This document shows positions 44,154-49,676 of a stretch of DNA of 64,000 nt, in pieces (position 1 is the stretch's first letter; the number at the start of each line of letters is the position of its first letter). Position numbers and translations under genes: made by a program. Source of the DNA: Candidatus Omnitrophota bacterium (GTDB lineage Bacteria; Omnitrophota; Gorgyraeia; 2-02-FULL-51-18). The notes beneath the pieces were generated by a model. It worked only from the letters and a program-made list of their open reading frames with translations, was not told the DNA's origin and did not search any database. Where the stretch lies: assembly GCA_023247915.1 (NCBI GenBank), contig JAHFFN010000003.1, forward strand, positions 4,081 through 68,080, in the 5' to 3' direction.

Positions 44154-44834
44154 ATGGCGGATATGTTCATAAGCTCTATTAAATTTCATTCGAATCTAAA
44201 AAAAAGGTTGGGAGTCGCGTTCGCGACCCTAGTTCTTTTGACGTCTTTTGGACTGTTAGCCCCCTCCGCATTTGCGTTCTCAGCACCTGATCGAGTAGGA
44301 AAAGCGGATATTGGTTTTGATTTGTCCGGTGCTATTTCAAGCGACAGCGACATAAACTCTACTTTTTACGTTGGCGGCAATATGTCTTACGGCATCAATG
44401 AATGGTTTGCGGTAGGGGTCTCTCTTGGCCGAGAAGAATTTAGCGCTAATGATATCACAGTTGGTTCGGCAACAATTCCTGGCCCCGACATCGCGGGACA
44501 CCCGCTTTTTTTAGACTTTATTTTTAGAAAGTACATGCCGGACAAAGCGTATGTGCCATACGGCGTCCTTGGCGCTGGCATTATCTGGTGGAAGAGCCAG
44601 GATGTGACAGCCAGCAATGGCATTCAATACGAAGCTTCCGTTGACCCTGCCCTGGGATTCAAGCTTGGCGGCGGAGTGGATTGGTTCATGAATGACAAAT
44701 GGGCTCTCAATCTCAATTTTGATTATGTTCTCACCACGAGTTCTGCGCCGCTTAGCAATGGAAGCATTAGCGTCCGCGACGACGTCAACCTCGACTACTG
44801 GAATCTTGGTGGGGGGATCAAGTATCTGTTTTAA
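44154..44834 (+). CDS. small outer-membrane beta-barrel protein, paralog of 43478..44083
   Basis: It shares APDRVGK(W/A)D(V/I)GFDL(A/S)GAIS(T/S)DSD(L/I)NST and the C-terminal GGGIKYLF. Confidence 0.7.
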   Translation: MADMFISSIKFHSNLKKRLGVAFATLVLLTSFGLLAPSAFAFSAPDRVGKADIGFDLSGAISSDSDINSTFYVGGNMSYGINEWFAVGVSLGREEFSANDITVGSATIPGPDIAGHPLFLDFIFRKYMPDKAYVPYGVLGAGIIWWKSQDVTASNGIQYEASVDPALGFKLGGGVDWFMNDKWALNLNFDYVLTTSSAPLSNGSISVRDDVNLDYWNLGGGIKYLF

Positions 44835-47259: not shown

Positions 47260-49676
47260 ATCCTTTTGCATTTTCAGGCCTACTTATAGGAATTTCTTCA
47301 ACGGCGATGGGTGTGTGGGTATTAATGAAAAACTCATCAAGCCCCGTTAATAGACTGTGGGCTATTTTCTGTGTCTCTGTAGCTTTTTGGGGTTTTGGTG
47401 GGTGCGCATTCGGACTTGCCAAAGATGCTAGCTCAGCGCTTCTTTTTTTGAGACTTACCTATGTAGGCGTAATTTTTATACCGGTTCTTTTTTACCATTT
47501 TGTGGTCGTCTTTCTTGAGCTACATCGCCGCAAAAGTCTTGTCGTAGCTTATTTAATAAGCATCATTTTTTTAATGGCTGACGCAACTCCTCTGATGCTC
47601 GGCAATATGACCTGGATGTTTGGACAATTTTATTTTTTATGCCCACCCGGTGTGTTGTACCCATATTTCGTTTTATTTTTTGTGTTTATGACATCCGCAA
47701 GCTTGATTAATTTATGGTATTTTATGAAAAAAATTGAAAATGAACTTCGACGAACTCAGATCAAATGGTTTCTTATGGCAACGGCAATTGGATTTATAGG
47801 GGGTTCAAGCTGCTTCCTGCCTGTTTTTGGAATCAAAATTTACCCTTATGGAAATTTTACAGTTGCCTTATACCCAATAATTATGAGTTACGCCATTATC
47901 AAGCATCAATTGTTAGATATAAAAGTTGTTATCAGAAAAACAATTTTTTATTCTTTGGCGGCATTTCTAACCTCTATCATTTACGTATTCGCAATAGTTG
48001 CTACACATAAAATAATGACAGGTGAGTGGGCCTATCGGTTAGATTTTTTAAATGGTTTAAAAAATTTTCCAAGCCTTTTTACGCTAACCAGCCTCCTATG
48101 CGGACTTTTTTCTTTTGGCTTAGCTATATTTGCAGGCATCACGGGAAAATCTAAAGCTCAAAAATTATTTGCTGCCTTTAATTCAGCGGTAGCTTTATGG
48201 GGATTTGGCAATTTTTTAGCAGGAATTTCCAAGACTCCAGAGACTGCTTTACTATCTTGGCGTGTTGCATATTTTGGTGGGTTTTTTATCAGCACTTTTT
48301 TCTACCACCTAGTCTTAGATTTTTTTGAAATAAAAAATAAAAATATTTTATGGTTCGCCTATCTGCATTCGATTATTTTTTCAGCGTTGATGGCGATTCA
48401 TCCAATCTATTTTTTGAGCAAAATTCGCATGGCTTTCGGAGTGCCATACAATATTGTTACTCCGTGGATGGCCGTCGCCATTTGGATATTTTTAATTTTG
48501 GTTGGACTGAGCTATCGAGAGCTATTGCTTTATCTACAAGCTCCAAAAAATGAAAACAAGACACAAGCAAAATACTTTATTTTTGGTTTTTCGTTTGGAT
48601 TTTTTGGAGGCATGACGACTCTATTGCCTCCATTTGGTGTGGATATTATTTATCCCATTGGAAACTTGGGTGTCGCCATCTATGTCGTAATTCTTCTATA
48701 TGCAATTTTTAGACATCAAATCTTAGATATTCGTATCGTGATACAAAGAACGGCTACGTATACCGTTCTAATTCTTCTGATCTCCATAGCCTACATTTTA
48801 ATAGTATTTGCTGTGCATCGATTTATTCTAGTTGAAAAAATGGTTCATGCGAATTTATTTAGCAACGTTGTTTTGATTCTTTTAATAGCTCTATTCTTAA
48901 AACCCTTGGAAGCATTTTTACGCCGGTACGTCGATAAGAAATTTTTTAAAGGAACTATTCAGGAGATATCGGCACAAAAGGATAAGCTGGAGAGTGAATT
49001 GGAGCGGAGGGAGCGTCTTAAAAGCGTAGGAATTTTGGCTGCTGGTATGGCACATGAGATCAAAAATCCGATCACATCTATCAAGACGTTCACTGAATAT
49101 TTACCGACAAAATATGACGATCCAGAGTTTCGTGAGAAATTCATTCGGATTGTTAGTGATGAGACAGAGAGAATTTCTGGCATTGTCAAGGATCTGCTTG
49201 AATTTTCAAAGCCGTCGGAGCCCAATAAACAATCTTGTGGTCTTAATCAGATTTTATCGGATGTTACAGATCTGCTAGGTGGGGGTATCTTCAAAAAAGG
49301 CATTGAGCTTCAGATGAGCTTTGTCTCGAATCTTCCAAGAGTTTATGTTGACCCATCCCAAGCCAAGCAAGTGTTTCTAAATATCCTTATGAATGCCATG
49401 GACGCGATGACTGGTGAGCGACGCGTTTTACGGATTGAGACAGGCGTGGCTGGTAAGCATGTTTTTGTTGCCGTTGAGGACACAGGCTGTGGCATGTCTG
49501 GAGAAACCAGCAAACATCTTTTCGACCCCTTCTTCACGAACAAAGCAACCGGAACCGGACTTGGTATGGCAATCACTCATTCCCTCATTGAGAAAAACGG
49601 CGGCACGATCCATGTCAGCAGTGACATTGGCAAGGGTAGCCGTTTTGTCGTGCAATTCCCTGTATTCCAAGCTTAA
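47256..49676 (+). CDS. sensor histidine kinase with two tandem multi-TM (7TM-type) input modules
   Basis: ATGA overlap with the previous kinase gene. H-box GMAHEIKNPI, N-box NILMNAMDAM, G-boxes DTGCGM and GTGLGMA. Confidence 0.85.
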   Translation: MNPFAFSGLLIGISSTAMGVWVLMKNSSSPVNRLWAIFCVSVAFWGFGGCAFGLAKDASSALLFLRLTYVGVIFIPVLFYHFVVVFLELHRRKSLVVAYLISIIFLMADATPLMLGNMTWMFGQFYFLCPPGVLYPYFVLFFVFMTSASLINLWYFMKKIENELRRTQIKWFLMATAIGFIGGSSCFLPVFGIKIYPYGNFTVALYPIIMSYAIIKHQLLDIKVVIRKTIFYSLAAFLTSIIYVFAIVATHKIMTGEWAYRLDFLNGLKNFPSLFTLTSLLCGLFSFGLAIFAGITGKSKAQKLFAAFNSAVALWGFGNFLAGISKTPETALLSWRVAYFGGFFISTFFYHLVLDFFEIKNKNILWFAYLHSIIFSALMAIHPIYFLSKIRMAFGVPYNIVTPWMAVAIWIFLILVGLSYRELLLYLQAPKNENKTQAKYFIFGFSFGFFGGMTTLLPPFGVDIIYPIGNLGVAIYVVILLYAIFRHQILDIRIVIQRTATYTVLILLISIAYILIVFAVHRFILVEKMVHANLFSNVVLILLIALFLKPLEAFLRRYVDKKFFKGTIQEISAQKDKLESELERRERLKSVGILAAGMAHEIKNPITSIKTFTEYLPTKYDDPEFREKFIRIVSDETERISGIVKDLLEFSKPSEPNKQSCGLNQILSDVTDLLGGGIFKKGIELQMSFVSNLPRVYVDPSQAKQVFLNILMNAMDAMTGERRVLRIETGVAGKHVFVAVEDTGCGMSGETSKHLFDPFFTNKATGTGLGMAITHSLIEKNGGTIHVSSDIGKGSRFVVQFPVFQA

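Follow-up and report, generated by a model that had tools for sequence, protein, structure and literature searches.

K1 and K2, two adjacent sensor histidine kinases encoded in a 64,000-nucleotide stretch of contig JAHFFN010000003.1 from a Candidatus Omnitrophota bacterium (hereafter the window), each carry two complete seven-transmembrane (7TM) modules of the HisKA_7TM family in series. Both are probably two-input membrane sensor kinases, composed of exchangeable, old and distinct 7TM types that have been re-paired repeatedly among Omnitrophota paralogues. Three further histidine kinases, K3, K4 and K5, have one module each, and all five genes lie at 44.8-61.9 kb of the window. We write K1a and K1b for the first and second module of K1, and likewise for the other proteins; the coordinates are collected in Table 1.

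An original prediction, made from the DNA letters and their translations, had proposed that K1 and K2 contain the module twice, that all five kinases share it in seven copies and that it corresponds to HisKA_7TM. All of this is borne out. In full-length scans the Pfam family HisKA_7TM (PF16927, curated gathering cut-off 28.6 bits) matches K1 with 81.0 bits and K2 with 82.5 bits, in two stretches each, and the single-module kinases K4 and K5, scanned alone, reach 41.3 and 48.6 bits. All 21 pairs among the seven modules are significant by blastp, and the local-alignment scores between modules lie 20-43 standard deviations over those of shuffled sequences (Smith-Waterman, 300 composition-preserving shuffles). 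Alignment of the halves of each protein recovers a significant internal repeat, with z-scores of 43 for K2 and 23 for K1; by blastp, K2a and K2b share 36% identity across 257 residues (123 bits), and K1a and K1b 29% across 166 residues (61 bits). Self-BLAST of the whole K1 and K2 proteins returned the diagonal only, and the repeat becomes visible once the proteins are split into units. A profile made from the seven units covers each copy across all ~258 positions, so that the repeated unit consists of seven transmembrane (TM) helices, a conserved string and one further TM helix.

Scanned alone, neither K1a nor the K3 module has a Pfam HisKA_7TM match even at E = 10, and one stretch listed in the full-length K1 scan (residues 17-232) is K1a. 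Since Pfam reports neither module by itself, their homology is drawn from the pairwise and profile scores: against the other modules both give blastp E-values of 1e-8 to 1e-23 and shuffle z-scores of 20-29, and the K3 module matches K1b with E = 8e-23. The family is described as seven TM helices at the N-terminus of a kinase. AlphaFold gives seven helices per module and hydropathy agrees; the second modules of K1 and K2 differ from this description in being internal.

The K2 start codon (ATG) overlaps the K1 stop codon (TGA). K1 begins at GTG 44809, which is NCBI's own 816-residue call, with an alternative TTG one codon upstream at 44806. Both translations contain the motifs of HisKA-type kinases, namely the phospho-acceptor His box AHEIKNP of the DHp domain and, for the N, G1, F and G2 boxes of HATPase_c, NILMNA(I/M)DAM, DTG(R/C)G(I/M), FDPFFT and GTGLG(L/M). 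Helix 1 of the DHp domain is almost identical in K1, K2, K4 and K5, reading AHEIKNP(L/I)T(A/S)I(N/K)TF. Foldseek with the full K2 model matched kinase cores only (ZraS, HK853, WalK and CusS, E = 1e-11 to 1e-15), and the module had to be modelled by itself.

The full-length AlphaFold model of K2, built on 30 sequences, has a mean predicted local distance difference test score (pLDDT) of 77.9, with values of 85-95 within the bundles. Module a is composed of helices 3-25, 30-53, 58-86 and 92-109, a β-hairpin (119-128) and helices 135-159, 163-185/191 and 198-216; the conserved string comes next, and then TM8 (helix 227-255) with a short linker behind it. Residues 274-487 repeat this arrangement and are followed by TM8' (497-525) and a continuous helix (534-619) that contains the last TM segment and runs into the DHp domain. 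Modelled alone on 81 sequences, K2a gives eight helices and the β-hairpin with a pLDDT of 94.8 and a predicted template modelling score (pTM) of 0.86. The count for K2 is thus 7+1+7+1+1 = 17 TM helices, and hydropathy gives the same number for K1; the ~14 expected originally fell short by the TM8 of each unit and by a last TM helix behind the second unit. Lysine and arginine make up 19 of the 79 residues in loops assigned to the cytoplasm and 8 of the 140 in those assigned to the periplasm, which places the N-terminus of K2 outside. Because TM8 leads the chain back across the membrane to the periplasm, the second module has the same orientation as the first, so that the two are equivalent in topology, as the original prediction required.

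A closer inspection of the conserved string showed it to be the tight cytoplasmic turn between TM7 and TM8 in the module-only model of K2a, with the consensus YAIxKHxLLDIxVVIxK. All four of its positions in K1 and K2 had been located correctly within 3 nucleotides (nt). It had been taken for a juxtamembrane segment, whereas it is followed by TM helices and not by the kinase, and the pattern said to fit six of the seven copies strictly fits five, since the K4 copy, FRHGVMGISIVIRK, also departs from it with G in place of D.

A search with K2 retrieved 120 relatives, 31 of them with two modules, and a bootstrapped neighbour-joining (NJ) tree was calculated for 153 modules. The named relatives are metagenome-assembled genomes (MAGs) of Candidatus Omnitrophica/Omnitrophota and Nitrospirota. 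Both pairwise identities and the tree divide the modules into discrete types, with ~50-70% identity inside a type and ~30% between types, and with bootstrap support of 87-100% for the type clades. Type X comprises K2a, the first modules of P0002, P0007, P0009, P0010 and P0011, and many single-module kinases. Type V comprises the sole module of K5, P0003a, P0004a, P0010b and P0011b; type Y comprises K2b, P0002b-P0005b, P0012b, P0006a and P0008a. K1a forms type Z with P0006b and P0007b, and K1b forms type W with P0008b and P0009b. The search with K1 added P0259, P0262 and P0122 with the pair V-Z, P0261 with Y-Z, P0260 and P0121 with a further type T followed by W, and P0127 with Z followed by another type; the sole module of the GAF kinase P0266 is W-like (41-47% identical to W modules). 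No second Z-W protein was present among the relatives from the K1 and K2 searches. The seven modules of the window belong to seven different types and none is a recent copy of another. The sensor modules of the five kinases share no DNA similarity that would indicate recent exchange within the window; such similarity (67-78%) is confined to the kinase cores.

The distribution of conserved residues in the module suggests how it may work. Type-specific columns favour the half that faces the periplasm (means 0.217 vs 0.129; Mann-Whitney p = 4e-5) and are found chiefly where TM1, TM2, TM3 and TM7 reach the outer side, K2 positions 46-54 and 200-207 included; the universal residues are located in the cytoplasmic half (in K2 numbering I75, P76, F79, H81, F82, Y99, L153, W171, Y212-A-I, L219, D221, I222 and Y232). 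In our best reading, types Z and W in K1, and X and Y in K2, have been brought together with a seam at or beside the TM7-TM8 turn. Each bundle, with its N-terminus predicted outside and its C-terminus inside, ends in the cytoplasmic turn followed by TM8. The TM8 of the first bundle brings the chain back to the periplasmic side and lets the second bundle insert the same way round, whereas behind the second bundle the chain passes through TM8' and a last TM helix and continues as one helix into the DHp/ATPase core. Of this reading, the anatomy, the predicted topology, the homology, the mosaic evolution and the synteny are shown; ligand binding, the integration of two inputs and the receiver and HD-GYP partners are proposed. 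Each bundle would recognise a signal of its own in the periplasm-facing half and pass it on through a common output in the cytoplasmic half. If each bundle does sense its own signal, each kinase would integrate two inputs, and the kinases may then phosphorylate the stand-alone receivers of the same gene island, which also encodes a GAF-HD-GYP protein, putatively a cyclic di-GMP phosphodiesterase.

The bundles could instead report a bulk property of the membrane, such as thickness, fluidity or lipid composition, and bind no ligand, with two bundles widening or tuning the response. Such a role would suit modules that lack a sizeable extracytoplasmic domain (the largest outside loop has ~25 residues), and lipid-type genes (β-ketoacyl synthase (KAS), acyl carrier protein (ACP), short-chain dehydrogenase/reductase (SDR), enoyl-CoA hydratase, GDSL hydrolase, methyltransferase) are invariably found in the interval from the double kinase to K3. 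The large number of discrete types, and the position of their type-specific residues at the outer helix ends, are however more easily explained by specific ligands. This evidence is indirect, and we regard a bulk-property sensor as unlikely.

Somewhat less likely again is that the first module is a non-sensing membrane scaffold, serving in anchoring, oligomerisation or localisation, and that only the kinase-proximal module senses. The first module does lack a direct helical connection to the DHp domain, and AlphaFold does not place it in any defined interface with the other parts of the protein. Against this, the motif YAIx(K/R)(H/Y)xL(L/M)DI has 2.74 bits per column in first modules, 2.44 in second modules and 2.56 in single ones, with an overall conservation of 1.8-2.0 bits per column that is similar across positions. 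As the motif is as conserved in first modules as elsewhere, first modules are under the same constraint. The same types also occur as second modules in other proteins and as the sole sensor in single-module kinases (type V in K5), and a recently copied first-position V module in a relative (locus L006, see below) differs from its counterpart at 51 synonymous and 20 non-synonymous codons, which fits purifying selection. With the motif at full strength in both positions and the same types acting as sole sensors elsewhere, two ligand sites per protein, as originally suggested, are a reasonable reading of K1 and K2. A pseudo-dimeric sensor, the alternative offered in the original prediction, may also be considered: AlphaFold defines no arrangement of the two modules relative to each other (pTM 0.40, linker pLDDT below 50), and the freedom with which module types are re-paired speaks against an interface having co-evolved between the two positions.

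The two modules of a kinase had been attributed to tandem duplication within that kinase, each protein copying its own module and the copies diverging in place. The modules are indeed homologous over their whole length and arranged head to tail, those of K2 are each other's best match among the seven in the window, and, although nearly all doubles mix two clusters, both modules fall into one cluster at 45% identity in P0123, P0016 and P0053. Once modules from other genomes are included, however, the NJ tree no longer groups the two modules of one protein as nearest kin: they are 29-36% identical to each other, whereas modules of other Omnitrophota kinases reach 52-66%, and these closer relatives frequently occupy the opposite position or are the sole module of their protein. 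K1a is 52-54% identical to P0006b and P0007b (next best match 30%), K1b 56-61% to P0008b, P0009b and P0260b, K2a 58-66% to P0002a and P0007a, and K2b 55-62% to P0002b, P0003b, P0004b, P0006a and P0008a; the sole module of K5 is 58% identical to P0004a. The modules of one protein are thus distant paralogues, and duplication in situ is already contradicted for K1 and K2. A further difficulty is that the gene at one syntenic locus carries nine different ordered pairs in ten contigs, and we consider this origin very improbable.

The locus in question has the same general layout in the relatives: an outer-membrane or PEGA protein, one or more double kinases, an HTH_17 gene, lipid-type genes (SDR, KAS, ACP, amino oxidase and a Shikimate_DH-like gene), a K3-like 7TM-GAF kinase, two to three receivers and a GAF-HD-GYP gene. 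The window matches it, with outer-membrane β-barrels, K1, K2, HTH_17, methyltransferase, KAS, enoyl-CoA hydratase, GDSL hydrolase, K3, two receivers and HD-GYP. The double kinases at this place have the pairs [Z-W][X-Y] in the window, [T-W][X-Y] in a 6.8-kb ENA contig of ERZ27296333 (adjacent genes with a 4-nt overlap; DNA not available), [V-Z][V-Y] in L006, V-Y in L001, X-Y in L003 (where the gene call is short at the N-terminus and the open reading frame (ORF) extends to 9428), Y-W in a 12.3-kb ENA contig of ERZ27296333 (P0008), X-V in L005, Y-Z in both L004 and L129, and an untyped module followed by a Y-like one in L007. Exchange also reaches the GAF kinase, as the K3-like kinase of L006 has a module (16661-17443) that shares 75% identity with the one in first place in the L007 double kinase (10007-10786). 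That the double modules or their varied pairings come from chimeric assembly or fused gene calls has a negligible probability: all sequences are from metagenome assemblies, and three related populations occur in one sample (ERZ27296333), but K1 and K2 are uninterrupted ORFs, the K2 protein is identical in three independent public assemblies (NCBI, on a 69.7-kb contig, ENA and Logan), same-type modules from different contigs are 50-75% identical with no common piece of the kind a chimera would require, so that assembly chimeras cannot explain the pairings, and double modules recur in Omnitrophota, Nitrospirota, Planctomycetia and Saganbacteria, with triples in Patescibacteria.

The three populations in metagenome ERZ27296333 have the pairings [Z-W][X-Y] (the window type), [T-W][X-Y] and Y-W.

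Two additional regularities were considered and rejected. Pairwise identities hinted that the kinase core is inherited together with the second module, but the cores, in an NJ tree with bootstraps, follow neither module: P0009 (X-W) groups with P0122 (V-Z) at 95%, and P0002, P0260 and P0121 join single-module kinases with 93% support. The cores have therefore been reassorted too. A linear order of types, X<V<Y<Z<W, as expected from an ancestral gene array, accommodates the eight ordered pairs that were found first, but not significantly so, since 72 of the 256 possible orientations of the pair graph are acyclic, and P0139 resembles a Y-like/V-like pair reversed relative to that order.

The position of the seam is mapped most directly in L006, where two adjacent genes have 716 nt in common at 87.6% identity, starting 6 nt before the start codon and reaching a little beyond KHQLMDIKVVIK. 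The encoded proteins are ~90% identical to residue 232 and 15-25% identical from there until the kinase core. In older pairs with the same second and different first modules, TM8 is 39-61% identical, compared with 55-74% for the common module; where the first module is the same and the second differs, TM8 is 21-46% identical. The TM8 comparisons are suggestive only, and they would be consistent with TM8 tending to travel with the downstream module and with a junction at the conserved turn. The double genes are likely to have come from fusion in tandem arrays of single-module kinases, although this step is inferred. Such arrays exist as K5-K4 in the window and as four genes in a row in L011. 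More broadly, and with odds that we put below even, HisKA_7TM bundles may be exchangeable sensor cassettes for which the TM7-TM8 turn is both output joint and recurrent recombination seam, giving two- and three-input receptors whose input pairs differ between close, co-occurring populations.

In L011 (7907-14290, an Omnitrophota MAG) the four single-module HisKA_7TM kinases have ~535-540 residues each and overlapping stops and starts, with a fifth on the other strand; this array is a possible substrate for gene fusions. One of the two L006 genes (P0004, 6449-8950) has its last ~60 residues out of register, with GTGAWPCRYALHH... in place of GTGLGL..., which points to a frameshift within the ATPase domain or to an error of sequencing there.

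Several points weigh against the reading of K1 and K2 as re-paired two-input sensors. The trees are NJ trees of ~250 columns with weakly supported deep nodes, a single recent exchange (L006) maps the seam at nucleotide level, and the co-inheritance of TM8 comes from 28-residue segments in 11 pairs. Some of the "single" relatives may be fragments from short contigs. The full K2 model has a pTM of only 0.40 with a connector pLDDT below 50; AlphaFold therefore leaves the contacts of the first module with the second module or the kinase undefined, and transmission from the first module is not explained by it. The partnership with the receivers is read only from the genes' proximity and the near-identity of DHp helix 1 in K1, K2, K4 and K5. 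Finally, our literature search found HisKA_7TM named in two papers only, in passing and with no function given, and no ligand for any HisKA_7TM protein, and in the same literature no description of tandem 7TM sensors was found.

Multi-module kinases are widespread in the family. Against 1.84 billion representatives, clustered at 50% identity, the seven-unit profile matches 18,014 clusters at E <= 1e-3, 8,359 at E <= 1e-10 and 2,098 at E <= 1e-30. Among the best 150 clusters by score ~70 have two stretches and two have three, and 257 retrieved proteins examined with our own profile comprise 171 single, 84 double and 2 triple ones; as domain scores add up, both samples favour multi-module proteins and these counts are not frequencies. 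Even so, the architecture is not unusual within HisKA_7TM kinases, contrary to what the original prediction had supposed. Double modules were found in genomes of Omnitrophota, Nitrospirota, Planctomycetia and Saganbacteria, with the GTDB genome scan, in which the window's own species was not recovered, used for taxonomic spread only. The two triple proteins, P0124 (1253 residues, a Patescibacteria MAG) and P0125 (1231 residues), have three HisKA_7TM modules of different types in series and would have ~25 TM helices. A scan of metagenome contigs with K2 returned only distant kinase cores, through the pattern MNAMDAMT, and no close relatives.

The closest known systems are the single-module HisKA_7TM kinases, among them K4, K5 and the haloarchaeal VNG_2180C, a HisKA_7TM histidine kinase named in PMC5847659. 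They share with K1 and K2 the 7TM bundle, the TM7-TM8 turn, two further TM helices and the HisKA/HATPase_c core, the kinase cores being ~45-60% identical. What distinguishes K1 and K2 is an extra complete bundle with a connector helix in front, ~17 TM helices in place of 9, and bundles of different types. BtsS of E. coli, a LytS-type 7TM kinase whose N-terminus lies outside, binds pyruvate at a site between TM helices close to the periplasm (PMC10653868). It resembles K1 and K2 as a membrane-embedded seven-helix sensor coupled directly to a kinase, a mechanism that we would extend to K1 and K2 by analogy, and a variable outer half combined with a common inner half, as in HisKA_7TM modules, is the layout that BtsS shows experimentally. 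BtsS differs in that it has one module and is a kinase of another class, whose regulator is of the LytTR type. No sequence relationship to BtsS was detected, as no LytS-type sensor family appears in the Pfam results for K1 and K2.

The 7TMR-DISM proteins are likewise bacterial seven-helix modules fused to varied signalling outputs. They usually carry an extracytoplasmic DISMED domain, which K1 and K2 lack. Of the modules only K1a, scanned alone, has a match to 7TMR-DISM_7TM (PF07695), and at 18.3-18.5 bits (E = 0.002) it is weak and below the gathering score of 29. The 7TMR-DISM receptors were reportedly described by Anantharaman and Aravind in 2003. As regards structure, no PDB sequence matched the module profile at E <= 10, and Foldseek of the module against PDB gave nothing at E <= 0.001 (best E = 4e-3, with a template modelling score (TM-score) of 0.59). 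The best Foldseek matches are class A G-protein-coupled receptors (GPCRs) and adiponectin receptors (PAQR), with TM-scores of 0.45-0.59, identities of 9-15% and root mean square deviations of 5-7 Å. All of these are up-down seven-helix bundles like the module, and GPCRs further resemble it in that their N-terminus is outside and their outer half varies while the inner half is conserved. The resemblance to GPCRs and adiponectin receptors is that of a generic bundle and is not evidence of homology.

Soluble sensors occur in tandem on kinases as tandem PAS domains, dCache and the Venus-flytrap pair of BvgS, and sensor domains have been shuffled between kinases in evolution. K1 and K2 are similar in having two sensor units in series on one kinase and differ in that the repeated unit is an integral-membrane bundle, so that a connector helix is needed to keep its orientation.

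HisKA_7TM is a large family of membrane sensors, with ~18,000 clusters at 50% identity matched at E <= 0.001. If its bundles can indeed be stacked and swapped at a defined seam with the kinase remaining functional, they would offer a natural blueprint for chimeric membrane sensors. A swap at the TM7-TM8 turn would then give an experimental handle on how the signal leaves the bundle, and closely related natural chimeras would allow ligand specificity to be assigned module by module. K1 and K2 would also exemplify how uncultured bacteria with small genomes diversify sensing without new pathways. The general picture, that kinases evolve by shuffling of sensor domains, is unchanged.

Table 1. Features of K1, K2 and the surrounding kinase island (positions are those of the window).
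Feature	Position	Strand	Basis and remarks
K1	44809..47259	+	816-residue sensor histidine kinase, two 7TM modules (types Z, W); ORF and Pfam
K1 module a, type Z	44830..45615	+	Seven TM helices, turn and TM8; full-length match to own module hidden Markov model (HMM), 296 bits
String ISKHQLLDIKIVVQK	45475-45519	+	K1 module a; TM7-TM8 turn by homology to K2a model
K1 module b, type W	45637..46440	+	Own module HMM 323 bits; Pfam HisKA_7TM 51 bits alone
String IAKHGLLDIRVVIKR	46300-46344	+	K1 module b
K1 kinase core, HisKA/DHp and HATPase_c	46630..47253	+	Pfam HisKA 609-668, HATPase_c 712-816 (residues from 44806)
K2	47256..49676	+	806-residue sensor histidine kinase, two 7TM modules (types X, Y); ORF, Pfam and AlphaFold
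K2 module a, type X	47256..48035	+	Seven TM helices, turn and TM8; Pfam 56.4 bits alone; module-only AlphaFold model
String IIKHQLLDIKVVIRK	47895-47939	+	TM7-TM8 turn of K2 module a
TM8 of K2, residues ~227-255	47934..48020	+	AlphaFold helices and positive-inside count; connector helix back to periplasmic side before second module
K2 module b, type Y	48048..48845	+	Pfam 49.1 bits alone
String IFRHQILDIRIVIQR	48705-48749	+	K2 module b
K2 kinase core, HisKA/DHp and HATPase_c	49035..49664	+	Pfam HisKA 594-653, HATPase_c 699-803
OMP_b-brl/OmpW β-barrel proteins, two paralogues	43478-44083, 44154-44834	+	Directly upstream of K1
HTH_17 gene (excisionase/MerR-like), small	49932..50147	+	Just 3' of K2; same place in at least six related loci
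Lipid-related genes: Methyltransf_20, β-ketoacyl synthase, enoyl-CoA hydratase, GDSL hydrolase	50163-54108	+	Between K2 and K3
K3	54105..56234	+	Single divergent 7TM module and GAF domain; conserved anchor of island, orthologues at same place
Stand-alone receivers, two	56241-56630, 56623-57009	+	Pfam Response_reg, phmmer
GAF and HD-GYP-type (HD_5) protein	57031..58260	+	Pfam; likely cyclic di-GMP phosphodiesterase output
Minus-strand operon	58232..61902	-	K4, K5 and receiver
K4	58232-59869	-	Single module
K5	59866-61464	-	Single type V module
Receiver	61516-61902	-	

The gene neighbourhood bears on the possible output of the kinases. K1 and K2 have no adjacent receiver, and the island contains three stand-alone receivers, on which we infer that K1, K2, K4 and K5 converge and through which they may control the HD-GYP protein. 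Rather than being a relic of a mobile element, the HTH_17 gene may act as a conserved partner of the kinases. In the K2-K3 interval the relatives have an SDR-KAS-ACP-KAS-amino oxidase-Shikimate_DH-like set; the content varies and the lipid theme is constant, and these genes may link the sensors to a lipid or polyketide-like product. OmpW or PEGA proteins are encoded at the place of the window's outer-membrane β-barrels in related loci.

The two β-barrel genes are preceded by a gene for a secreted, low-complexity protein rich in Ser, Asp and Thr (42687-43454, plus strand). Just upstream of the island, an ORF of 2839 residues (32939-41458, plus strand) contains many YD/Rhs-type repeats, a G/W-rich run (GGWFPPGGGGGGGGWGGGWDGWGGGGSGGWDSGFGG) and repeated Ig-like segments, and its product looks like a giant secreted or toxin-like protein. 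The G+C content is 0.47-0.52 in the first 32 kb and 0.38-0.44 across the kinase island (44000-56000), which may differ in its history from the remaining contig. In relatives, defence or mobile genes abut the double kinase on its upstream side, so that this border is a variable region: an AbiEii/AbiEi pair is present in L006 (2603-4029), and L129 (458-9994) has two integrases, a Y1 transposase, and toxin-antitoxin genes of the PhdYeFM and ParE-like kinds.

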